A stretch of DNA of 64,000 nucleotides from a bacterium (lineage in GTDB: Bacteria; NPL-UPA2; JAUVJM01). Of the stretch, positions 1 through 11,882 are shown piece after piece. Made by a program: the position numbers and the translations under genes. Position 1 is the first letter of the stretch, and each line of letters starts with the position of its first letter. Where the stretch lies: contig JAUWGW010000003.1 in assembly GCA_030606215.1 (NCBI GenBank), positions 4,407 through 68,406 on the forward strand. The letters run 5' to 3'. Below the pieces are notes generated by a model that was not told the origin of the DNA, searched no databases, and was given only the letters and a program-made list of their open reading frames with translations.

Positions 1-54
1 AAATAGCTTGCAAAATAACCAATAAAAGGTTAAAAGACAAGGTATTGGAAAATT

Positions 55-891
55 ATGATTACATTATCCTTTTATAATATTGATGAATTCTGTTCAAAAA
101 TAGATTTAAGTGTAGGGAGACCTGTTATTGACTTATCAGATGTTTCATTCGTTGAGCCTTATGCTATAATTTATCTTGGATTGTTTATGAGATATTACAA
201 CTCACTTGGAAAATATTTTGATTGGCGAGATTCAAGTGATACAAAGGTTAGAAAATATTTATCTCGTATGAACTTTTATGAGAGGTTTAATTTTAGTAAA
301 GATGTGATAAAAGAAACAAAGCTAATACGATTTACATCTAATACATCGTTTAATGACATTATTGATATAGAGAAAGATGTTTGCATGCCAGATTCTATTG
401 CCAATGAATTGAGAGAATTGTTGATTCGGCAGTATGAAATAAATAATGTTAAATTTGATATTCCCGTTGTGTGCGAGATTACTGCTGAAATAATTGATAA
501 TTTTATTCAGCACTCTGATGAAAACTTGGCGGTAATGACAGTTCAATATTTTCCTAAAAAGCACACTTTATCTATTGCAATTGGAGATTGTGGGATTGGC
601 ATTAAGAAAAGCTTATCGTCTGTGTCAAGATATTCTCATGTCAGGAATTTGTCGGATGAGGATGCAATTGAGAAAGCTTTTGATTACTTAGTATCAAGAA
701 AAATGGAGGGAGGCACAGGATTAAGTGATATAAGAGATACCATCTTAGAGAAAAATGGAAGTCTATATTTTTCCTCTAATGAGGGCTTCTATATAATAAA
801 GGATAGGAAGATACAAAAAGGAAGCATGTTTTTTGAGTTACCTGGTGTTCAGATTGAATATATTTTCAAAGAGGAGGTAAATGGGCTATGA
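55..891 (+). CDS. GHKL-type (histidine kinase/SpoIIAB-like) ATPase with an N-terminal STAS-like region
   Basis: 278-aa ORF. N-box-like EIIDNFIQHS, G1 box GDCGIGI and G2 box GGTGL. The N-terminus IDLSDVSFVEPYAIIYLG resembles an anti-sigma-antagonist/STAS segment. The stop overlaps the next start (ATGA at 888-891). Confidence 0.6.
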   Translation: MITLSFYNIDEFCSKIDLSVGRPVIDLSDVSFVEPYAIIYLGLFMRYYNSLGKYFDWRDSSDTKVRKYLSRMNFYERFNFSKDVIKETKLIRFTSNTSFNDIIDIEKDVCMPDSIANELRELLIRQYEINNVKFDIPVVCEITAEIIDNFIQHSDENLAVMTVQYFPKKHTLSIAIGDCGIGIKKSLSSVSRYSHVRNLSDEDAIEKAFDYLVSRKMEGGTGLSDIRDTILEKNGSLYFSSNEGFYIIKDRKIQKGSMFFELPGVQIEYIFKEEVNGL

Positions 892-1292
892 ATAAAGATA
901 TCACAATAGACGTGGCAAAACTTGCAAAGTCTACAATTACGAGAAACCGTGGAAATGAGGCATTTGGTAATTTAGAAAGCATTATCAAAAATAATCCACC
1001 CGACGTAGTAACTATTGACCTGACAAAATCTGGTATGGTTTCTTTATCATTTCTTGATGGCATGATTGTTAATATGCAGAAAAAATTAGAATTACGAAGA
1101 GTAAAACTTTGCTTTATTGTCAAACTTGAAGATGTGCTCAAGAAGTTAAGAAAAGTAGTAACACTCAGAAATTTCAAGGGATATTACAAATACGCTAATG
1201 AAGATGATGTCAAGGAAATTGAAAAAGTTGAGATGAATTCGAATATGCGTCCAGAAGTGGTTAAAAATAAAGAGAGCCTAATAAAACTGTGA
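888..1292 (+). CDS. STAS-like (DUF4325-type) protein, translationally coupled partner of the upstream ATPase
   Basis: 134-aa ORF. TRNRGNEAFGNLESII...VVTIDLTKSGMVSLSFLDGMI matches my recollection of the DUF4325/STAS-like pattern. 4-nt overlap with the upstream gene. Confidence 0.5.
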   Translation: MNKDITIDVAKLAKSTITRNRGNEAFGNLESIIKNNPPDVVTIDLTKSGMVSLSFLDGMIVNMQKKLELRRVKLCFIVKLEDVLKKLRKVVTLRNFKGYYKYANEDDVKEIEKVEMNSNMRPEVVKNKESLIKL

Positions 1293-1459
1293 TAGGTGAT
1301 AATTATGCCAGCGCATGACATAATTGATAATCGCAAAGAAAATTGCAGGAATGCAACGAAGTCTATTGGGCAGCCTGCGAGTTGGTAAAGAATAGGCTAG
1401 AAAAAGCAAAGAGTGTATGAAAAAAATAATTAGAGGCAAAAACGCAGGTAGTCATTAAA

Positions 1460-2557
1460 ATGGGGAAATTACATATATTCCTTTGTGCGCTAATTACCAT
1501 TATTTCTATATCATTTACTCTATATAGCGTCCGTTCGAGTCAAAAAAGACATTTCATCATAATTGGAATTGCATTGATTGTTACATTATGGGCGGCACTA
1601 GGATATTTGATGAATAAAAGACAGAGAGAAGAAATAGTCGAAGAAGTGAAAGAAGTTAAGAGAGAGATAGAAAATCTACCTCAAAGGTTGAGTATTTTAC
1701 TAAATCCAATAATTGAAGCAAAAATTGAGCGGAAAGAGGAGTTTAATAAACCTACTATGGGGTTTGAAGAAATGTTATTCTCAGAAGCACGAGAAAATCA
1801 AGTGTTCATTCATAAAAATTTAGGAATCTATTACTATAAAAGGAACGATTTTGGTATTGCTGAAAAGGAATTACAGAGAGCAATTCAATTCGACCGAAAG
1901 GACATAGATAGTCATAGGTATTTGGGCATCATTTATAGCAAGAAACAAGATTTTAACAGGGCAATTTCTATATATCAAAAAATAGTGAACTTGAAACCCG
2001 ATGTTTCCACTCTTGAAGAACAATTACAGCTTGCTGTTTTGTACGAATATATTGGTCGTGATGCTTCAGCTTTACAGTCAGCTTTGAAACTCTATAATCG
2101 TATTATTGGATTTAATGATGCTTATGTTAAGCTTGCAAAAGACAGGATAGAATATATTAGGCCACAAATAGAATATGAATTCGAACGAAAGAGAAGAAGT
2201 GGAACTATGCCTGTAGGTTTGATCCCACCGATTGTGGTAATTAGTTTGCCTTCTCCGGGATCCAAATTTGCTCTTGGGAGAGAAATCATTCTAAAAGGAA
2301 CAATTGCAAACCCCAGATATGGTAATATCATTGATTACTATGTTGTAGAATATAGAAATCTTAGTAAGGAGGACGATTCTTGGCAGATAATTAAAAGTGT
2401 TGACTTTCAGGGAGCAAAGGATGAAATCATTGGTGGGGTAATATGCAAATGGACACCTATAAGCCTTGGGAGATATCTTGTTAAGGTTATTGCTAAGGAT
2501 TTAAATGGGCATGAGGCTTCTCATCAAATTCAAATAATGGTTCAACCAAAAGAATAA
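1460..2557 (+). CDS. Membrane-anchored TPR-repeat protein with a C-terminal Ig-like beta domain
   Basis: 365-aa ORF. Two N-terminal hydrophobic helices, a charged coiled segment, TPR-like repeats (LGIYYYKRNDFGIAEKELQRAIQFD, RYLGIIYSKKQDFNRAISIYQKIV) and a beta-rich C-terminus (YLVKVIAKDLNGHEASHQIQIMV). Confidence 0.5.
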   Translation: MGKLHIFLCALITIISISFTLYSVRSSQKRHFIIIGIALIVTLWAALGYLMNKRQREEIVEEVKEVKREIENLPQRLSILLNPIIEAKIERKEEFNKPTMGFEEMLFSEARENQVFIHKNLGIYYYKRNDFGIAEKELQRAIQFDRKDIDSHRYLGIIYSKKQDFNRAISIYQKIVNLKPDVSTLEEQLQLAVLYEYIGRDASALQSALKLYNRIIGFNDAYVKLAKDRIEYIRPQIEYEFERKRRSGTMPVGLIPPIVVISLPSPGSKFALGREIILKGTIANPRYGNIIDYYVVEYRNLSKEDDSWQIIKSVDFQGAKDEIIGGVICKWTPISLGRYLVKVIAKDLNGHEASHQIQIMVQPKE

Positions 2558-2640
2558 ATATTTAATCAACAGTGTTCAGAAACTATAGGATGCTGGAGCA
2601 GGTGTTAAGCTAGCAAAAAGTTAAGATGATGGAGTGGAAT

Positions 2641-3624
2641 ATGGCTACAAAGGTATTTATAAGTTGTGGGCAGGCAACAGATAGAGAAATTGAAACAGCT
2701 AAGAAAATTAAAGAATGGTTAGAAAATAAAGAGATTGGTTTTGAAAAAGCATACGTGGCAATTAGAGAACAGGAGATGCAAGATCTCAATAGTGCCATTA
2801 TCAATAACCTGGCAGATTCGGATTATTTCTTGTTCATAGATTTCAAGAGAGAAACCATCAATGGGGGAAACCTCTTCAAGAAAGTGGTTAACTGGTTGCT
2901 TGGTAAAAAAAGCTATAGAGGCTCCCTCTTTGCTCATCAAGAATTAGCGTTGGCTTATTATCTTGGTTTTGAGGATGTGATTTTTCTTCATCAAGAAGGT
3001 GTAATTTCGGAAGGTTTTTTGAAGAGTATTCAAGGGAATTCCATTCCGTTTAGAGGCTATGATGAGATATTAGAGATAGTAAAGGAGCAGGTTGGAAAAA
3101 GATGGGATAAAAATTATTCAAGGCACCTTGTTGTTGGAGATATTACAAAATCAGAGGGTTCTTACGGTGACCATTCAAGCGATGGGCAAAAACGTCAACA
3201 AATCTGGCATTGTAGAATAGATAACAGGAGGAAACGAGAAGCGGCGCAAAATGTTGTGGCAAGATTGAAAGAAATAAGGGATGAAAAAGGGGAAGTGAAA
3301 AGCTCGCCGGATAAACAAGCGCTCAAATGGGCTGGCGCTTATACGAGTTATTCTTATGTAATTCCTCCACAGTCTGATGGAACTTTTGATCTTTTTTGCA
3401 CTTTCCCTTACAAGCTCACAGAGATCTATCTGCACAGTCTTTTAGACGTTAAACCCCGGGAACCCATTATTAGAAAAGCGGGAGAATTTTATCTCATATA
3501 TCAAATATCCGCTATAAATTTTCCTCGGCTTGAGTTTTCTGTGAAACTAAATTCAGGGAAAATACCGCTTGAAGTTAATATCGTTAAGAGTTCCGATGGA
3601 TCAGGGATTTCTCTTATTATGTAA
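2641..3624 (+). CDS. TIR-like / nucleoside 2-deoxyribosyltransferase-like domain protein with an uncharacterised C-terminal domain
   Basis: The ORF track starts at 2626. ATG 2641 follows GGAG (2632-2635) and gives MATKVFISCGQ, a TIR/NDT-type first strand. SLFAHQELALAYYLGFEDVIFL resembles the NDT-family catalytic-Glu helix. The C-terminal ~150 aa has no motif I recognise. Confidence 0.45.
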   Translation: MATKVFISCGQATDREIETAKKIKEWLENKEIGFEKAYVAIREQEMQDLNSAIINNLADSDYFLFIDFKRETINGGNLFKKVVNWLLGKKSYRGSLFAHQELALAYYLGFEDVIFLHQEGVISEGFLKSIQGNSIPFRGYDEILEIVKEQVGKRWDKNYSRHLVVGDITKSEGSYGDHSSDGQKRQQIWHCRIDNRRKREAAQNVVARLKEIRDEKGEVKSSPDKQALKWAGAYTSYSYVIPPQSDGTFDLFCTFPYKLTEIYLHSLLDVKPREPIIRKAGEFYLIYQISAINFPRLEFSVKLNSGKIPLEVNIVKSSDGSGISLIM

Positions 3625-3754
3625 CAATCTGATTCCTGTAGGGAGAAATTCATCATTTTAGAGATAAACATCGCACGGGGCTTGAGTGTTGACTACAATG
3701 TGTATGCGATTGACTACAAAATGTATATGGAGGTTGACCGTGTTAGAAAAAAGC

Positions 3755-3783
3755 TTGACGGCATGGATATATCTGAGTATAAT
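3755..3783 (+). promoter_or_regulatory. Sigma70-like promoter for the MNT-HEPN-helicase operon (TTGACG-17 nt-TATAAT)
   Basis: TTGACG at 3755-3760, a 17-nt spacer, TATAAT at 3778-3783, 39 nt upstream of ATG 3822. Confidence 0.5.
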
Positions 3784-3820
3784 GAATTTGAGTTCAAAAA
3801 AATGAATTTGAGTTCAAAAT
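3781..3820 (+). promoter_or_regulatory. Two tandem 20-bp operator-like repeats, each with a small inverted repeat (TTTGA-GT-TCAAA)
   Basis: AATGAATTTGAGTTCAAAAA (3781-3800) is followed by AATGAATTTGAGTTCAAAAT (3801-3820). They lie between the -10 box and the start codon of a gene that encodes an N-terminal wHTH. Confidence 0.5.
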
Positions 3821-3821
3821 T

Positions 3822-4355
3822 ATGAAATTAAGAGATTTCTTCTTTGGTACAAGCCAGCAAAAAATTCTAAAATTTTTAGCTGATTTTCCTAATAAGACCT
3901 TCTTTGAGCGGGAAATTTCTCAGAGGACAGGAGTAAGTCGGGGAGCAACCAATATCGCTTTAAAACAATTGGTTAAAGGAAATTTAATTATTTTAGAAAA
4001 GAGAGGAAGGATGTCTTTCTATTCTGTAAATTTGAGAAATCCTATCATAAGGGAATGGAAAGTTCTAAATAATGTTATTAAAATCCACTCATTAATAAAA
4101 AGAGTAGCAAAAATAAGTGATAAAATTATCTTATTTGGAAGTGCGGCAGATGGTATAAATATTAAAGGGAGCGATATTGACCTTTTCGTTCTGACCAACT
4201 TCTCTAAAGAGGTAAAAGAGATAATTTCTAAGGATAAGAAAAAAATTCAACTAATTGTCAAGAAACCTTTAGAATTTGTAGAGATGAAGTCAAAAGACTC
4301 TGTATTCTATGAGGAGATATTGAAAGGAGTTGTCTTATGGGAGAAGATGGAATAG
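3822..4355 (+). CDS. wHTH-fused minimal nucleotidyltransferase (MNT), antitoxin-type partner of HEPN
   Basis: 177 aa. N-terminal MarR-like wHTH (EISQRTGVSRGATNIALKQLV). NTase motif LFGSAADGINIKGSDIDLFVL (GSx10SDxDL). Overlaps the HEPN start by 19 nt. Confidence 0.75.
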   Translation: MKLRDFFFGTSQQKILKFLADFPNKTFFEREISQRTGVSRGATNIALKQLVKGNLIILEKRGRMSFYSVNLRNPIIREWKVLNNVIKIHSLIKRVAKISDKIILFGSAADGINIKGSDIDLFVLTNFSKEVKEIISKDKKKIQLIVKKPLEFVEMKSKDSVFYEEILKGVVLWEKME

Positions 4356-4783
4356 ACCATGAGTTTAAAAAGTGTCTGGCAAAAGGGAAATTAAGGGAAT
4401 TTCCTAAAGGCAAAGGTCTCTTTCCCAAAGAATTAGAAACGGCAGAGAGAGATTTGGAAGAAGCAAAGGATAATTACAAAAATAAGAAGTTTAAATGGGC
4501 TACTATTCAGGGATACTATGCAATGTTTCATACTGGAAGGGCATTAATTTATTTCAGGGGATACAGAGAAAGGAGTCATTATTGCTTAATTGTAGCGTTG
4601 AGAGCTCTATTTGTTTCTAAGCGAGCCTTGAGTGCTCAAATAGTGGAAATGTTGCAACAAGGAAAGAGATTGCGGGAAAGTGCCGATTACTACAACGAGT
4701 GGTCTCAAGAAGGAGCTCGCAGAATAATTGAGAGTGCTGAAGAATTTATCAAAAAGACAAAGGGGATTTTGCGTAGTGAGTGA
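4337..4783 (+). CDS. HEPN-domain protein (toxin-type RNase partner of MNT)
   Basis: 148 aa, all-helical. RGYRERSH fits the Rx4-6H HEPN motif, with a conserved-looking RESADY near the C-terminus. Gene order MNT-HEPN with overlapping junctions. Confidence 0.7.
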   Translation: MGEDGIDHEFKKCLAKGKLREFPKGKGLFPKELETAERDLEEAKDNYKNKKFKWATIQGYYAMFHTGRALIYFRGYRERSHYCLIVALRALFVSKRALSAQIVEMLQQGKRLRESADYYNEWSQEGARRIIESAEEFIKKTKGILRSE

Positions 4784-7700
4784 CGTAATTGATAATAGAA
4801 AAGTGAGACTTGGGGATGCGATAGGTAAAATTTTGCCAAATGCTGAGCGAGCAAAGTTTGCTGTAGGCTACTTCTTCCTATCCGGACTTGAGGCTATCCA
4901 AAAACATCTTGCTGGGGTATCGGAGCTAAGACTTCTTATTGGTAATACAACAAACCGGCAGACTTTAGAACAGATTAGCGAAGGGTATAAACGGTTGGAC
5001 TTAGCCCAGCAGGCTATGGATGACATTACCAAGTTCTCCAAGAGAAGCGAGAAGAAACACCGCATAAGTGAGACAGCAGAAAACTTAAAGGAAGCAGTGG
5101 CATTGATGGACCAGACCAATGAAGGCGAAGAACTAGTGAACATCTTAATCAGACTGATTGAGGAGAAGCGGTTAAAGGTGAAAGTGTATACAAAGGGCAG
5201 GCTCCATGCCAAAGCTTATATCTTTGACTACAAGCAGGATGGAAGATATGAAAAAGGAATTGCGGTTGTCGGTTCGTCTAACCTCACGCTTTCAGGGATA
5301 GAGCACAATACAGAATTAAATGTTGTAGTTCAGGGAAATGACAATCATAGAGAGCTAACTAAGTGGTTTGAAGAACTCTGGAGTGAGGCAGAGGATTTTG
5401 AAACTCATCTGATGAATGAATTGAAGCAGTCCTGGGCTGTTGTTCCAGCTACTCCTTATGACATCTATATGAAAACACTTTATGCTCTTGTAAGGGACCG
5501 TTTAGAAGAAGGAGAAGGAGCAGAGATTCTCTGGGATGATGAGATTACAAGAGATTTAGCAGATTTTCAAAAGGTGGCGGTTAGACAGTCCATTCAGATG
5601 ATTCGGGATAATGGCGGATGTTTTGTATCTGATGTTGTAGGTCTTGGCAAGAGCTATATCGGGTCAGCAATTCTCAAACATTTTGAGCGAACCGAACATG
5701 CCAGACCTCTGATCATTTGTCCTAAGACTTTGGAGGATATGTGGGAAGGATATAATGAAGTTTATCACTTGAACGCGAGAGTTCTTCCCATGAGTTTACT
5801 TAAAGCAAAGGATGAGGAAGATATCAATATGCTCCTTGAGGATGTCAAATACAGGGACCGAAATGTAGTTCTTGTTGACGAAAGTCATAATTTTCGCCAT
5901 CATACTATACAACGGTATCAGATTCTCCAGACATTCTTTTCAACTGGTAGAAAATGTTGTTTTCTAACTGCCACTCCACGGAATAAGACTGCGTGGGACC
6001 TCTATCACCAGATTAAGCTATTTCATCCCGATGATAAGACTGACTTACCCATTGAGCCTCCTGACCTGAAGCAATATTTCAAGGCAATTGAAAAAGGGGA
6101 AAGAAAGCTTCCTGATATTCTTGCTCACATTCTAATCAGAAGAACTCGGCGTCATATTCTTCGTTGGTATGGATATGCTGAAGATACCAGTCAGCCTTTA
6201 AGGGAACTCTCAGATACGGTTTGTCAGCCATATCTTGATGGCGAGAGAAGAGCTTATGTAATGGTTGGTGCAAAGCACCAATATTTCCCTAAGCGAGAAC
6301 TTGAAACCATGAGATATAGTATTGAGAAGACATATAGAGGTCTTTATCAACAGATTAGAGGATACCTGGGACGCCCGAGAGGAGAAAGGTATAAGCCTAA
6401 ACCGGGGGTAGAACTTACCTATGCTCGTTATGGACTGTGGCATTATGTTCATGAAGATAAAAGAAGGAAGAAACCTTATAGTGACCTTCATCGTGCAGGG
6501 ATTAATCTAAGAGGAATTATCCGGGTATTGCTTTTCAAACGATTTGAATCAAGTGTCGCTGCCTTCAGAGAGACTTTAAGACGGCTTATCAGAATTCACA
6601 GCGCTTTTCTGAAATCGCTTGAACAAGGGGTTATCCCGGCTGGAGACGACGCTCAGCAGCTTCTCTATGAATCAGATAAGATTAGTGAGGTTGACCTGTT
6701 AGAACAATTACGAGAACTGAGCGGGGCATATGAATCAAAGGACTTTTATGTGGATGAGTTGAAAAAACACATCAAGGCAGATAAAGAACTCTTAGAGACC
6801 ATGTTTTCCCTTGTTGAACCAATTACCCCCAAGAACGATGGCAAACTTCAGACACTGTTCTCAGGGATGCAAAACGAGCCTTTATGTAGGGGTAAATGCT
6901 TGATTTTCACCCAATATGCTGATACTGCAAGATACCTGTATGAAAATCTCAACCCGGGGGATAAACAACCAGATATAGATGTGATTTATGGAGCGGATAA
7001 AAGCAAAATTAGAATGGCAGGGCGCTTTGCTCCTGAGGCAAATCCTGAATATAAATTTCAGAAGGGAGAGCGTGAAGTCCGTATCCTGGTTGCCACAGAT
7101 GTGATGGCGGAAGGGCTCAACCTTCAAGACTGTGATAAGGTTATCAATTATGACCTCCATTGGAATCCTGTTCGGTTGATTCAACGTCTGGGGCGTATTG
7201 ATAGAATCGGCACTGAGCATGATATAGTGTGGGCATTTAATTTTCTGCCGGAGAGTGAATTAGATAAAGGCCTTAGAATAACTGAGGTTTTAGCCCGACG
7301 CATTGAAGAAATACACGATACTATAGGGGAAGATTCGGCAATTCTTGATAAAAGTGAACAACTGAACGAAGAGGCAATGTATGCGATCTATGAAAAAAAG
7401 GGAGGACAACTTACCTTCTTTGAGGAGGACGAGAAGGAATTTATTGATTTAAATGAAGCTGAAGAAATGCTCAGGCAGATGCGGAGAGAAAGACCTGAGG
7501 AGTTTGACAGAATAGCGCATCTGCATGATGGCATTCGGAGTGCAAGGGTATCTGATACAAAGGGGCATTATGTTTTCTGTCAAGCAGGGCGGTTTCAAAA
7601 GTTATATTTAGTGGATGCGAAAGGAAAAATCATCTCCCGTGATATCCCACGGGTTTTGGGGACTATTAGATGTTCGCCAGTTGAGCCAACGGAAAGCCTC

Positions 7701-8093
7701 CCGCATGGTTATAACGACAAAGTTATGAGAGTAAAACAATTATTTGAGGAGGAAATCAAACATCGTAGGGCTGAAAGAGAACATACTCTTTCACTAACTC
7801 AGGCTCAGCGGTATGTCCTCCGGGAACTGCGTATATTGTTCCAGCGTGTTGAAGATGAGGACACTAAAGCTCAAATCAATATACTTGATAAGGCATTTCG
7901 GGTGACACCGACGGTTGCTGTGAATAGAGAACTGAATTATCTAAGGAGGAATGGAATTGTCGGAGAAAGTCTTCTTAAGAATTTGACACGCATTTATCAT
8001 CAACATAGTTTGAAAGAGCGTGTGGACCAAAAAGCTATTACGAGTGACAGTGAGATAATTCCCAGGATAGTTTGTAGTGAATGCTTGGTCTAA
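4776..8093 (+). CDS. PLD-family nuclease (single HKD) fused to an SNF2/SF2 helicase
   Basis: HKD motif HAKAYIFD...GSSNLT (His codon at 5205). Helicase motifs GLGKS (~5640), DESH (~5877), LTATP and QRLGRIDRIG. The track ATG at 4728 lies inside the HEPN gene. GTG 4776 (VSDVIDNRK...) overlaps the HEPN stop within GTGAGTGA and is the more plausible start. Confidence 0.8.
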   Translation: MSDVIDNRKVRLGDAIGKILPNAERAKFAVGYFFLSGLEAIQKHLAGVSELRLLIGNTTNRQTLEQISEGYKRLDLAQQAMDDITKFSKRSEKKHRISETAENLKEAVALMDQTNEGEELVNILIRLIEEKRLKVKVYTKGRLHAKAYIFDYKQDGRYEKGIAVVGSSNLTLSGIEHNTELNVVVQGNDNHRELTKWFEELWSEAEDFETHLMNELKQSWAVVPATPYDIYMKTLYALVRDRLEEGEGAEILWDDEITRDLADFQKVAVRQSIQMIRDNGGCFVSDVVGLGKSYIGSAILKHFERTEHARPLIICPKTLEDMWEGYNEVYHLNARVLPMSLLKAKDEEDINMLLEDVKYRDRNVVLVDESHNFRHHTIQRYQILQTFFSTGRKCCFLTATPRNKTAWDLYHQIKLFHPDDKTDLPIEPPDLKQYFKAIEKGERKLPDILAHILIRRTRRHILRWYGYAEDTSQPLRELSDTVCQPYLDGERRAYVMVGAKHQYFPKRELETMRYSIEKTYRGLYQQIRGYLGRPRGERYKPKPGVELTYARYGLWHYVHEDKRRKKPYSDLHRAGINLRGIIRVLLFKRFESSVAAFRETLRRLIRIHSAFLKSLEQGVIPAGDDAQQLLYESDKISEVDLLEQLRELSGAYESKDFYVDELKKHIKADKELLETMFSLVEPITPKNDGKLQTLFSGMQNEPLCRGKCLIFTQYADTARYLYENLNPGDKQPDIDVIYGADKSKIRMAGRFAPEANPEYKFQKGEREVRILVATDVMAEGLNLQDCDKVINYDLHWNPVRLIQRLGRIDRIGTEHDIVWAFNFLPESELDKGLRITEVLARRIEEIHDTIGEDSAILDKSEQLNEEAMYAIYEKKGGQLTFFEEDEKEFIDLNEAEEMLRQMRRERPEEFDRIAHLHDGIRSARVSDTKGHYVFCQAGRFQKLYLVDAKGKIISRDIPRVLGTIRCSPVEPTESLPHGYNDKVMRVKQLFEEEIKHRRAEREHTLSLTQAQRYVLRELRILFQRVEDEDTKAQINILDKAFRVTPTVAVNRELNYLRRNGIVGESLLKNLTRIYHQHSLKERVDQKAITSDSEIIPRIVCSECLV

Positions 8094-8112
8094 AACTCAC
8101 AGTTTCCGTGTC

Positions 8113-8141
8113 TTGACAAATTAGATTTGGGGTGATAATAT
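8113..8141 (+). promoter_or_regulatory. Sigma70-like promoter upstream of grpE (TTGACA-17 nt-TAATAT)
   Basis: TTGACA at 8113-8118, a 17-nt spacer, TAATAT at 8136-8141, 40 nt upstream of the GTG start of grpE. Confidence 0.5.
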
Positions 8142-8180
8142 TTATCAAGTCAAAAGTCGTGGGATTGTGGAGGAGATTGA

Positions 8181-8804
8181 GTGACTGAGGAACATAAAAC
8201 TGAAGGGCATGAAGAGATAAAGGAAAATGTAGTTGAAAGTGAATCTACACCTGGGGAAAAGTTGGTTAAAGCATCTCAGGAAGGAGTGAAGAAGAAGACA
8301 GAGCGTAAGAGAACAGCGAAAATAAAAGTTTCGCGGGATGAATGGGGAAAGGTTCTCGAAAAAGCGCAGAAGGCAGATGAATATTTTGACCAGCTTCTCA
8401 GGTTGAAGGCTGAATTTGATAATTACCGCAAGCGGATGAACAGGGAAAGAGAAGAGTTTGCGAAATATGCCGCGGAGGAATTGATATGTGAAATTCTTAC
8501 TGTAGTTGACCATCTGGAAAATGCAATTTCGGCGTCCGGAAAGAGCGAAGATTATAAGGTATTAGTTGAAGGGGTAGAGATTACCAGAAAAGAAGCTCTG
8601 AGGATTCTCTGTCAGTGGGGATTAGAGGAAATCAAAGCGATTGGCGAAAAGTTTGATCCTGAGAAACATGAAGCAATTGAGTGTATTGATTGTGGAGAAG
8701 AAGAAGGTAAAATTGTGGAGGAGTTGAGAAAAGGATACTGTTTAAAAGGTAAACTTATACGGCCATCTATAGTTAAGGTGGCAGGGAGGAACAAGAATGG
8801 GTAA
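8181..8804 (+). CDS. grpE: Nucleotide exchange factor GrpE
   Basis: 207 aa. Long charged helix followed by a beta domain ([10 protein letters not shown]...[16 protein letters not shown]). GTG start preceded by GGAGGAG. grpE-dnaK-dnaJ order. Confidence 0.9.
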
Positions 8805-10737
8805 GGTAATAGGGATTGACTTGGGCACAACAAACTCGGTTGTTGCTATTATGGAAGCGGGTAAACCTACGGTGATTGTGAATCCTGAGGGCATCCGCAC
8901 TACACCCTCTGTTGTGGCTTTCACAAAGAGCGGTGAGAGGTTGGTAGGACTGACAGCAAAGAGGCAGGCTGTTACGAACCCGGAAAATACTGTGTTTTCC
9001 ATTAAACGATTTATGGGGCGGAAGTTTGATGACTCTGAGGTTGTCAGGGCAAAGAAAATAGTCCCATATCGAATGTCTGAGGCAGGCAATGGTGATGTTC
9101 AGGTAGAAGTTGGCGGTAAAGCTTACAGCCCGCCTGAAATTTCTGCAATGGTGCTTCAAAAGATGAAGCAGACTGCAGAAAATTACCTCGGTGAGAAAGT
9201 TACCCAGGCAATTGTTACAGTCCCTGCATATTTCAATGACAGCCAGCGCCAGGCAACAAAGGATGCCGGTAAGGTTGCAGGGCTTGAAGTCCTGCGGATA
9301 ATAAATGAGCCCACTGCGGCTTCCCTTGCTTATGGATTGGAGAAGAAAAAAGAAGAGAAAATTGCGGTATTTGATTTAGGGGGCGGAACTTTTGACATCT
9401 CAATCCTTGAACTTGGAGAAGGCGTTTTTGAAGTAAAGGCTACGAATGGGAATACTTTCCTTGGAGGGGATGATTTTGACCAGAGAATCATTGACTGGCT
9501 GGCAGATGAATTCAAGAAAGAGCAGGGGATTGATTTGAGAAATGACAGGATGGCCCTGCAGAGGTTGAGAGAAGGTGCGGAAAGGGCAAAATGCGAACTT
9601 TCCAGTTCACTCCAGACGGAGATAAACTTACCTTTTATCACTGCTGATGCGAGTGGTCCGAAACATCTCAGCAGGACTCTGACAAGAGCAAAACTTGAGC
9701 AGTTGACAGCTGACCTTGTGGAGAAGGTTGAGGAACCGTGTCGTCAGGCGCTTAATGATGCAAAACTTTCATCCGGTGATATTGATGAAGTTATTCTCGT
9801 TGGAGGTCAGACGAGGTCTCCTGCTGTTCAGGAAAAAGTGAAGGAGATTTTTGGCAAGGAGCCTCATAAAGGAGTAAATCCGGATGAGGTTGTAGCTGTT
9901 GGAGCGGCTATTCAAGTGGGTGTGCTTGGCGGCGAAGTGAAGGATGTGCTTCTCCTGGATGTAACTCCACTTTCCCTCGGCATAGAAACTCTTGGTGCAG
10001 TTTTCACAAAGCTAATTGAGCGTAATACAACAATCCCGACTAAGAAGAGTCAGATTTTTTCTACAGCGGCGGACAGTCAACCTGCCGTGACCATACATGT
10101 TCTCCAGGGAGAACGTGGAATGGCGGCTGACAACAGGAGTCTTGGGCGGTTTGACCTGGTTGGGATACCACCTGCGCCTCGTGGTGTTCCTCAGATAGAG
10201 GTTGCTTTTGACATTGACGCTAATGGTATTGTCCATGTTTCCGCAAAAGACCTTGGCACGGGAAAAGAACAGAAGATAAAGATTCAACCATCAAGCGGTT
10301 TGACAGAAGAGGAAATAGAGAAGATGAGGAAATCTGCTGACGCTCACGCTGAGGAGGACAGGAAGAAAAGAGAACTGGCTGAGGCGAAAAACCAGGCTGA
10401 TAATCTGATATATACTACGGAAAAATCTCTCAAGGATATTGGTGATAAAATAGAGCCTGCTGAGAAGGAGAAGATAAGCACAGCTCTTGATAAGGTGAAA
10501 GAAGTCGTTAAGGGTGAGGATGCAGGAGAGATCAAGAAAGCGTGTGAAGAGTTAACGCAGGCTTCCCATAAATTAGCTGAGGCTATATACCAGCAAGCGG
10601 CTGCACAGCGTGAGAAGGAGGGGAAAGAGGAACCGGGGAAAAAAGAAGAGCCCGGGAAAGAAGATAAAGGGAAGAAAGAAGATGTAGTAGATGCGGAATA
10701 TAAAGTTGAAGATGAGGAAGAAAAGAAGGGAAAATGA
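8797..10737 (+). CDS. dnaK: Molecular chaperone DnaK (Hsp70)
   Basis: 646 aa. [24 protein letters not shown] and VILVGGQTR signatures, with an acidic/lysine-rich tail. The start overlaps the grpE stop. Confidence 0.98.
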
Positions 10738-11882
10738 AGCGCGACTATTATGAAGTGCTTGGTGTGAGCAGGGATGTGAGTGAAGAAGAGATAAAAAAAG
10801 CTTACCGCAAGCTTGCGGTCAAGTACCATCCCGACAAGAATCAAGGCAGTAGAGAAGCAGAGGAGAAATTCAAAGAAGTTTCTGAGGCGTATGAGGTGCT
10901 TCGCGACCCTAAACTGCGTGCTCAGTATGACAGGTTCGGACATGAAGGTGTGCGCCAGGAATTCGCGCGAGCCGGGGCGGGCGGATTTGGTGGACTTGGT
11001 GATGCTTTCAGAACGTTTGAAGAAGTTTTAAGAGAGTTTGGCGGGGGATTTGGCGGGGTTGATGATTTTTTTGGCGGAACGCGCACAGGAGAATTTGTCG
11101 GTGAGAGAGGTGCTGACCTACAGTATGAACTTGGATTAACTCTTGAAGAGGCTGCGTATGGGACAGAGAAAAAAATCAGCATTCCAAGACTTGAGCAATG
11201 TCCTGAGTGTAAAGGTAGTGGTGCAAAGCCCGGGACAGGAAAAACTGTCTGCCCTGTGTGCCAAGGGCATGGGCAGGTGAGGAATCAAGTGGGTTTCTTC
11301 AGTCTGGCGCAGACCTGCAGTAATTGTAGAGGGGCTGGGGAGATAATAAAATCACCCTGTCAGAAGTGCCGTGGTCAGGGTAGAGTTCGGCACAGGCGCG
11401 ATATCAAGGTAAAGGTACCGCATGGTATTGATACCGGCTCCCGATTGAGGATTGTGGGTGAAGGTAATGCTGGTTTAAGAGGGGCTCGTCCTGGGGATTT
11501 ATATGTGGCGATACAGATTCTGCCCCATGAGATTTTCGAGCGGCATAATGATGACCTGTACTGCCGTGTGCCAATAAGTTTTTCTCAGGCGGCGCTTGGA
11601 ACAGAAGTTGTTGTGCCAACTCTGAATGGCAAATTGAGAATGACAGTTCCTGCCGGCACTCAGACTGGAAAGACTTTCAGGGTCAGGGGGAGAGGGATTC
11701 CCCACCTGCACGGCTATGGCAGGGGAGATGAATATGTTGAAGTAGTGGTTGAAACTCCGACTAAGTTGACTAAGAGACAAAAGGAATTGTTGAGAGAAAT
11801 GGCTGAATCTGAAGAAGAGGCATACCCGCTCAGAAAAAGTTTCATAAACAAAGTAAAGAAGCTGTGGGAAAAGAAAACTTAA
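10734..11882 (+). CDS. dnaJ: Co-chaperone DnaJ
   Basis: J-domain HPD (KYHPDKN), a G/F-rich linker, four CxxCxGxG repeats ([32 protein letters not shown]). ATGA overlap with dnaK. Confidence 0.97.

Follow-up and report, generated by a model that had tools for sequence, protein, structure and literature searches.

A HEPN/MNT toxin-antitoxin cassette probably embedded in a two-gene, methyltransferase-linked restriction-like system

In characterised HepT/MntA toxin-antitoxin (TA) systems, the MNT protein neutralises its HEPN partner by adenylylation. HEPN genes of the PF05168 type cluster with restriction-modification (R-M) operons (PMC3710099), and a survey by Payne et al. describes defence cassettes nested within Hma, BREX and DISARM as well as type I R-M systems, and the PDC candidates of PADLOC as derived from such embedded cassettes (bioRxiv 10.1101/2024.01.29.577857). 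A representative of PDC-M05 shielded E. coli from at least one phage (PMC12881386). In MANTIS, a PLD-helicase dimer builds one active site and requires methyltransferase (MTase) partners (bioRxiv 10.64898/2026.09.23.753747). Here we describe a locus on a 64,000-nt stretch of DNA from a bacterium of the NPL-UPA2 lineage (contig JAUWGW010000003.1, positions 4,407 to 68,406 of the forward strand; "the window" below), where a gene for an MNT protein with an N-terminal winged helix-turn-helix (wHTH) and a HEPN gene directly precede the gene for an 1105-aa HKD-SNF2 protein, in which a PLD nuclease domain is fused to a SNF2-type helicase ("the helicase" below; Table 1).

An initial annotation, made from the letters of this DNA alone, had proposed that the three genes form a dedicated defence operon, which would have meant a new modification-free defence system of three proteins. 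Our comparison leads to a different reading, in which we have good confidence: the locus is a mobile HEPN/MNT TA-type cassette (PDC-M05) embedded in a restriction-like system of two components that is based on modification, directly before its restriction gene. It is a further example of documented embedding and not a new three-gene system. Two parts of the earlier proposal survive, in that 3755-8093 is supported as a defence locus and its MNT, HEPN and helicase genes are very likely one transcription unit; the dedicated trio does not.

The helicase and its methyltransferase partner

We compared 54 relative loci of the helicase gene, 17 from genomes and 37 from metagenomes, and classified their flanks with purpose-built hidden Markov models (HMMs) that were checked by Pfam. 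An Eco57I/IIG-like MTase gene lies upstream on the same strand in 27 of the 28 relatives that have at least 3 kb of upstream sequence, the exception being L044; it is also present in L056, the closest relative, with a helicase 88% identical to that of the window. The partner MTase is about 1200 aa long (1080-1250), carries Eco57I, N6_Mtase and TaqI_C domains by Pfam, and is best matched in PADLOC by REase_MTase_IIG, with weaker matches to DrmMI and PglX. Within the family the MTases are only 39-48% identical, against 63-73% for the helicases, as would be expected if the MTase carries the specificity. No conserved D...(D/E)xK nuclease pattern was found among the residues conserved to at least 85% in the first 260 aa of 60 full-length MTases, which is weak evidence that the partner MTase lacks the built-in nuclease of a true type IIG enzyme. 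A third gene of about 1000 aa, the size of the DUF499 ATPase, was absent from the flanks of the 12 tabulated relative loci, and Pfam gave no match to DUF499 or DUF3780 among the slot and flank proteins scanned, including the four window open reading frames (ORFs) upstream. The constant MTase and the lack of a third gene together point to a core of two genes, one for the MTase and one for a nuclease/motor. In one relative (L014, 6297-7980) a DDE_5 transposase is inserted in the 3' end of the MTase gene, and the displaced MTase C-terminus is still readable at 7732-7980, before the helicase.

The domain content of the helicase fits such a role. Pfam identifies PLDc_2 (50.9 bits), SNF2-rel_dom (27.4 bits, cut-off 24.9) and Helicase_C (61.8 bits), confirming, together with the Pfam results for MNT and HEPN given below, the domains that had initially been assigned. 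The HKD and superfamily 2 (SF2) motifs reported earlier are also present, although the residues then numbered His160 and Lys308 from TTG 4728 become His144 and Lys292 when counted from GTG 4776; on this count TATP stands at 398 and QRLGRIDRIG at 803. The single HKD motif is invariant across 23 family members and represents half an active site, which implies that the protein would have to dimerise, as has been shown for MtsD of MANTIS and for SauUSI. The best PADLOC model is C3a139 "HKD+Snf2" (5e-85, residues 1-863), with partial matches to DrmD (1.8e-39), PLD_Helicase (1.9e-31, C-terminal lobe only), DrmC (3.8e-9), BrxH, HmaA and PbeA. Scores fall far below the cut-offs of two named NCBIfam models, NF042964 for a phospholipase D-like anti-phage protein (163 bits, cut-off 1100; residues 570-857 only) and NF038317 for DISARM DrmD (154.5 bits, cut-off 610), and the PLD part matches RE_NgoFVII (5.9e-7, residues 126-202). 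A profile search of solved structures placed SsoRad54, RapA and ISWI on top, in keeping with membership of the SNF2 family; the sequence and profile searches of solved structures otherwise returned only generic SNF2 or DEAD-box C-lobe matches and no SauUSI. An AlphaFold2 model of the helicase was poor (mean pLDDT 55.8, pTM 0.36), built on a shallow alignment of 23 sequences, all at least 63% identical.

Among the scored candidates, 2881 homologues of the helicase were found at E < 1e-10, and the best 120 of these are 63-88% identical over their full length. Their hosts include Chloroflexota, Planctomycetota, Bacteroidota, Thermodesulfobacteriota and others, and so broad a spread over phyla at such high identity indicates that the helicase family spreads horizontally. 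From its domains and neighbours, we read the helicase as the probable restriction subunit of an MTase-linked two-gene system.

It had been noted initially that no MTase gene is adjacent, and from this it had been argued that the arrangement is not one of R-M. The observation is right for an intact gene: a search of six-frame pieces of at least 25 aa with the family HMM found none in the 64 kb. It is not right for a gene remnant. The last 24 codons and the stop of an MTase gene remain at 1346-1420, fused to a stub made of the ATG and the following 12 codons of a helicase gene. This relic was first exposed by blastn of the window against L059, a contig of the same sample that bears an MTase gene (81% identity over 68 nt, E 2e-9); it is found as well by tblastn (75% over 24 aa, E 1e-5) and by a C-terminal HMM (E 5e-8), and has 85% nucleotide identity to the MTase end of L056. 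The motif D[IV]IDNR, with which helicases of this family begin, occurs in the six-frame translation of the window only at the stub and at the real helicase start.

The contig L059 carries a full-length gene of the same family. Its product, P0121 (8623-12363, 1246 aa, Eco57I-type), is encoded at the end of the 12.4-kb contig, directly after smc and ftsY, and comes from the sample (SRR14876848) that also yielded the window pieces L055 and L058. With the MTase of L056 it shares 72% identity, where the family norm is 39-48%. The contig and the window agree in GC content (43.7% against 43.5% in the housekeeping parts of the window) and in tetranucleotide usage (r = 0.96). These resemblances suggest that P0121 is likely the cognate MTase of the window locus, the two contigs being linked by likeness, and that a functional MTase most likely lies upstream of the window. 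With a partner in 27 of 28 relatives, a relic in the window and a matching allele in the same sample, the claim that the arrangement is not one of R-M is not supported.

The same observations bear on the idea that the helicase is an orphan whose cognate MTase was lost, leaving either an inert remnant or a solo, SauUSI-like type IV modification-dependent enzyme. The scar does show that at least one MTase body was deleted, no MTase is found in the 64 kb or in the 575 bp upstream, and SauUSI, which has the same PLD-then-helicase order, needs no MTase. Yet the ORF is unbroken, shares 88% identity along the full length with an MTase-linked relative and keeps all family-invariant residues; a closely matching full-length MTase is present in the same sample; and the protein matches SNF2/RapA, not SauUSI, with no Pfam match to a DUF3427/SRA-type reader in its residues 860-1105. 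We therefore regard an orphan helicase as distinctly unlikely.

The toxin-antitoxin pair

The pair upstream of the helicase belongs to a described type. The MNT protein has Pfam matches to Polbeta (1.2e-10) and NTP_transf_2 (4e-9) and weak matches to MarR_2 and HTH_24 over its N-terminal winged helix; its motif GS (106-107) ... DID (118-120) is intact and conserved in the alignment. It matches PADLOC PDC-M05A (1e-20, residues 2-172) and stays below the cut-off of the NCBIfam MntA model NF047752 (34.8 bits, cut-off 60). The HEPN protein is matched by the Pfam HEPN family (PF05168 type, 1.5e-16) and by PDC-M05B (4e-5, residues 9-141), so both components of PDC-M05 are present in adjacent, overlapping genes. 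The canonical Rx4-6H RNase motif was not found in this HEPN protein, and the Rx6H motif named initially is absent; in its place stands R113-ESAD-Y (R-x3-D-Y), with a conserved upstream His81 in RSHY (79-82). Anantharaman et al. noted the R-x3-D-Y type as a variant among PF05168 HEPN proteins (PMC3710099).

To judge from its homologues, this pair lives largely apart from the helicase. Of 73 homologues of the window MNT, we looked up the context of six that lie on long contigs (51-67% identical). Downstream of all six of these closest long-contig homologues stands a HEPN gene of 141-150 aa or what is left of one (a broken remnant in two of the three P0266 contexts), and the 19-nt overlap of the MNT and HEPN genes is kept in five. 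None has an HKD-SNF2 gene near the pair. The contexts are a queuosine/FTHFS neighbourhood, a wzm-wzt operon, unannotated genes, an S-layer/cobalamin region, and Fic with type I hsdR/hsdS. In the second of these (L062, 4740-5695) the close MNT-HEPN homologue is inserted between wzm (ABC2_membrane) and wzt (ABC_tran) of a polysaccharide exporter, with 4 nt shared by the HEPN stop and the start of wzt. Moreover, at loci where the helicase is 71-74% identical to that of the window, the MNTs share just 24-27% identity with the window MNT. Homologues in unrelated contexts and the lack of co-divergence with the helicase together indicate that the TA pair is an autonomous mobile module. Tight coupling to whatever gene lies downstream would then be a habit of the module and not the mark of a partnership, which points against a tie.

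The recurrence of such pairs beside the helicase, which the initial annotation had offered as a check of its proposal, is nevertheless real in part. Of the 54 relative loci, 13 have a HEPN or HepT gene immediately 5' of the helicase and on its strand, with junctions that range from a 14-nt overlap to a 6-nt gap; other cargo stands in this place elsewhere, and the TA subfamily of the window occurs without the helicase in 6/6 contexts. Junctions of the MTase and helicase genes, where these abut, are equally tight (+16 nt in L040, +1 in L012, 0 in L034 and -14 in L022), from which it follows that the helicase gene is simply a promoterless distal gene of its operon.

A TA pair that is embedded and also functionally coupled to restriction would be a different matter. 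It might serve as a second line of abortive infection in the manner of PrrC and EcoprrI, silenced as long as the restriction complex is whole and released when a phage disables it, or the wHTH-MNT might control when the restriction gene is expressed once it has reached a new host. The 13 loci with their tight junctions agree with this idea, as does the apparent dependence of the helicase here on the TA promoter, and earlier work has suggested PrrC-like coupling both for HEPN genes linked to R-M (PMC3710099) and, more generally, for embedded systems (bioRxiv 10.1101/2024.01.29.577857). We nonetheless consider functional coupling unlikely: many helicase loci have no TA pair or have unrelated cargo, the TA subfamily of the window is found mostly outside such loci and couples as tightly to the unrelated wzt, and TA and helicase do not co-diverge. 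In addition, as stubs of the helicase start show (see below), recombination moves the tight junction together with the cassette, which explains this junction without functional selection.

The architecture of the three genes was as initially reported. The MNT stop (TAG 4353-4355) lies beyond the HEPN start (ATG 4337), giving the 19-nt overlap, and both the HEPN stop (TGA 4781-4783) and the helicase start GTG 4776 fall within GTGAGTGA. The helicase frame could also open at TTG 4728; relatives, however, begin with MPxHDIIDNR, and since GTG 4776 yields M-SDVIDNR it is the likelier start. The two 20-bp operator-like repeats before the MNT gene are likewise present, at 95% identity. They stand in tandem in perfect register, overlap the -10 hexamer of the predicted promoter and reach the MNT start codon, and each copy contains a TTTGA-N2-TCAAA half-palindrome; we propose them as a putative operator for the wHTH of MNT. 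The promoter itself, TTGACG-17-TATAAT, is present as initially annotated, agrees with the sigma-70 consensus at 11 of 12 positions and ties for best in positions 1-9000. As a class, promoter-like sites are not enriched in this DNA (31, against 25 +/- 3.6 in shuffled sequences), and the single site is for this reason only a prediction, a plausible and not a proven promoter of the TA pair. No terminator-like site was predicted on the + strand within 3755-8093.

The slot between methyltransferase and helicase

Where the MTase and helicase genes of relatives do not abut, they are separated by a slot of 0.8-4.9 kb that holds very different genes. MNT-HEPN or MNT-HepT pairs, sometimes two in tandem, occupy it in L001, L004, L009, L010, L013, L018, L025, L036, L038, L039 and L046, with fragments in L002/L003. 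An OLD/GajA-like ATPase-nuclease is found in L013, with ORFs of like size and like start in L024 and L036, and L056 has a KAP NTPase, DUF1016 and DUF5677. Various other loci contain Fic, SocA/Panacea, a DDE transposase, HEPN_Swt1-Mrr_N, HNH, Bro-N, AbiH-like and other genes.

This variety weighs against the idea of a dedicated system in which the three proteins (wHTH-MNT, HEPN and HKD-SNF2) would cooperate and DNA modification would play no part. The three genes are contiguous and overlapping, the window has no MTase gene, and MNT/HEPN pairs do recur beside the helicase family. But the MTase is near-universal in relatives and is represented here by a relic and by a full-length allele in the same sample; toxins of two families, HEPN PF05168 and HepT PF01934, occupy the same place, as do numerous non-TA cassettes; and the TA subfamily lacks the helicase in all six contexts examined. 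Synteny thus largely refutes the modification-free trio, which we now think very improbable. Nor is a composite trio, co-regulated as an unrecognised system, supported: the cargo of the slot varies, the TA pair matches PDC-M05, and it is found on its own.

The scar in the window suggests how such cargo may accumulate. The helicase stub begins 12 nt after the stop of the second of two ORFs near the window start and leads directly into the MTase relic. A helicase start fused to an MTase end is the remnant expected if tandem MTase-cargo-helicase units lost their inner bodies. Comparable helicase-start stubs (MPTHDIIDNRSEKL...) occur in L001 (~131-170) and in L025 (~1055-1100, between two TA pairs), placed upstream of TA pairs or between them, and a comparable MTase-end relic lies inside the slot of L056 (4545-4616). 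In L009 (5470-5736; the same as L046 4470-4736) the wHTH N-terminus of an MNT is fused to an MTase C-terminus. We read the two ORFs before the stub (55-1292) as the cargo of a first unit, an embedded cassette, and 1460-4783, with genes for a TPR protein, a 332-aa protein, MNT and HEPN, as the cargo of a second unit whose helicase survives.

We offer tentatively, as a possibility that we would rate at somewhat less than even, a more general model in which the two-gene family maintains a recombination-driven cargo slot. The conserved MTase 3' end and helicase 5' end would act as anchors, and whole cassettes, in many cases taking the first ~13 codons of the helicase gene along, would be exchanged, or would pile up through fusion of tandem units and deletion of the inner R and M genes; in the present case this would have put the restriction gene under the autoregulated promoter of a TA pair. 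If true, the slot would provide a concrete mechanism for the embedding of defence systems, and the scars of helicase starts and MTase ends a direct sequence record of how embedded cargo builds up. The slot proteins of the window (278 and 134 aa; 365 and 332 aa) become candidate defence genes by their position alone.

Under the embedded-cassette reading the locus might work as follows. The host system would consist of an Eco57I/IIG-like N6-adenine MTase, with a TaqI_C-type specificity domain, and the 1105-aa HKD-SNF2 protein. By analogy with type III R-M and MANTIS, the MTase would read and mark host sites and, on unmodified DNA, license the HKD-SNF2 protein, which may move along DNA using ATP and pair up to cut. 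The TA pair would be expressed from its own promoter, probably autorepressed through binding of the tandem repeats by the wHTH of MNT, and MNT would presumably adenylylate or bind the HEPN RNase and thereby neutralise it. The helicase gene, having no promoter of its own, would be transcribed by read-through, its translation coupled to termination at the HEPN gene. As to history, two tandem MTase-cargo-helicase units may have fused and lost the inner helicase and MTase bodies, leaving the scar at 1305-1420. Backup abortive infection, addiction to the locus and control of restriction-gene expression are possible roles of the embedded pair.

Several points weigh against this reading. Neither the window nor the 575 bp that precede it (a stretch taken from a same-sample contig) contain an intact MTase, and the physical link of L059 to the window is deduced from their likeness. 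If the MTase lies more than 5.3 kb upstream, the helicase would be driven by the TA promoter and decoupled from the MTase. In the clade of helicases of 70-75% identity, HEPN/MNT-type pairs are by far the commonest cargo and always directly abut the helicase start; this prevalence and position would also fit a selected functional link. Given its variant motif, RNase or toxin activity of the window HEPN is not assured. Finally, MANTIS needs DUF499 and DUF3780 proteins, and in their absence here the analogy may break down.

Table 1. Features of the locus and its surroundings in the window
Feature	Position	Strand	Description
Two ORFs	55-1292	+	278 aa (55-891) and 134 aa (888-1292), 4-nt overlap; precede the helicase stub
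Helicase stub	1305-1343	+	ATG + 12 codons, MPAHDIIDNRKEN; 34/39 nt identical to the L056 helicase gene start
MTase relic	1346-1420	+	last 24 codons + stop, QECNEVYWAACELVKNRLEKAKSV; fused to the helicase stub
TPR protein	1460-2557	+	365 aa, N-terminal hydrophobic segment; between scar and TA pair
332-aa protein	2626-3624	+	no family or solved-structure match; between scar and TA pair
Second direct repeat pair	3689-3726	+	TTGACTACAA..TGTAT, 17 nt, 21-nt spacing; upstream of promoter
Predicted sigma-70-like promoter	3755-3783	+	TTGACG-17-TATAAT
Tandem 20-nt repeat	3781-3800 and 3801-3820	+	AATGAATTTGAGTTCAAAA followed by A or T, two copies
wHTH-MNT gene	3822-4355	+	177 aa; ORF calling
HEPN gene	4337-4783	+	148 aa; ORF calling
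HKD-SNF2 helicase gene	4776-8093	+	1105 aa
HKD motif	5205-5288	+	HAKAYIFD (His144, nt 5205) ... GSSNLT (166-171)
ATPase core	5640-5888	+	Walker A GLGKS 289 (Lys292) to DESH (368-371), from GTG 4776

The remaining genes of the island gave few matches. Of the two ORFs near the window start, neither matched Pfam or NCBIfam; the 278-aa ORF has a GGTGLSD-type motif and matches the N-terminal part of one PADLOC DrmA model (4.6e-11), with no match to a solved structure. The 575 bp directly upstream of the window (L058 1-466) encode the C-terminal part of a helicase of SF1 type (...YVAVTRARRKVVIY...) and an HNH-motif protein of 78 aa, and the island consequently extends past the window start. Within positions 1-8100 the island has 37.6% GC (34.5% in the TA pair, 42.1% in the helicase gene), and the remainder of the window 43.5%. 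At its other end the island adjoins core chaperone genes: grpE-dnaK-dnaJ (8181-11882) follows directly after the helicase, and TTGACA-17-TAATAT with an extended TG (8113-8141) precedes grpE.

Comparison with known systems

The host system of this locus resembles several described systems and coincides with none of those we compared. It is related to MANTIS/Gao_RL/BREX-related type 2 (PMC12839542; bioRxiv 10.64898/2026.09.23.753747), with which it shares an effector made of an N-terminal HKD/PLD domain and an SF2/SNF2-type ATPase and the expectation of one PLD active site per dimer. An N6-adenine MTase partner, as in MANTIS, is present in nearly all relatives; the window retains only the 24-codon relic, with a candidate on the same-sample contig. 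MANTIS is, however, a four-gene system, and no DUF499 AAA+ ATPase (MtsA) or DUF3780 protein (MtsB) was found in the window or in the relative loci examined. Identity with MANTIS/Gao_RL was rejected on these absences, on the NF042964 score (163 against 1100 bits) and on an MTase that is nearest to IIG models. The two-gene system is unnamed and widespread, with thousands of homologues in many phyla, and in doing without the extra ATPase and co-regulator of MANTIS it offers a simpler test bed for the licensing of a PLD-motor nuclease by an MTase.

The helicase also resembles a fusion of DrmC and DrmD of class 1 DISARM, and the partner MTase gives DrmMI matches. DISARM was rejected all the same: neither DrmA nor DrmB (DUF1998) turned up, whether in the window or among the relative loci, DrmA matches being confined to generic ones to a helicase C-lobe and the N-terminal domain match of the 278-aa ORF, and the DrmD score is under its cut-off. 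With type III R-M (Mod + Res) the system shares a two-gene layout in which a specificity-bearing MTase is joined by a dependent, ATP-driven SF2 motor-nuclease; Res has a PD-(D/E)xK nuclease, whereas here an N-terminal HKD/PLD domain, a SNF2-like motor and a large Eco57I/IIG-like MTase are found, and this assignment was not retained. SauUSI shares the order of PLD and SF2 ATPase and a single HKD motif that implies a dimeric active site, but acts autonomously and cuts modified DNA through a C-terminal reader; no reader was detected here by Pfam, and the family is MTase-linked. NgoAVII/CglI keep a PLD + B3-like domain separate from the ATPase, while here the two are fused and Pfam finds no B3 domain. 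Hma identity was rejected on membership.

The TA pair shares with HepT/MntA type VII systems an MNT beside a HEPN in overlapping genes, and differs in its R-x3-D-Y HEPN, in the N-terminal wHTH on the MNT and in an MntA score below the cut-off. A HEPN nested in an R-M operon is a described theme, shared with PrrC-EcoprrI, of whose mode of control there is no evidence here. As in the embedded-cassette survey (bioRxiv 10.1101/2024.01.29.577857), the slot also holds OLD/Gabija-like ATPases and Fic. The host system is outside the four surveyed there (Hma, BREX, DISARM, type I R-M). The fusion of units, which our scars suggest as a route of embedding, is not described in the available part of that survey. 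The closest likeness is with the embedded PDC-M05 cassettes themselves, which, like the pair in the window, consist of a wHTH-nucleotidyltransferase and a HEPN gene nested in the same orientation in a modification-based operon.

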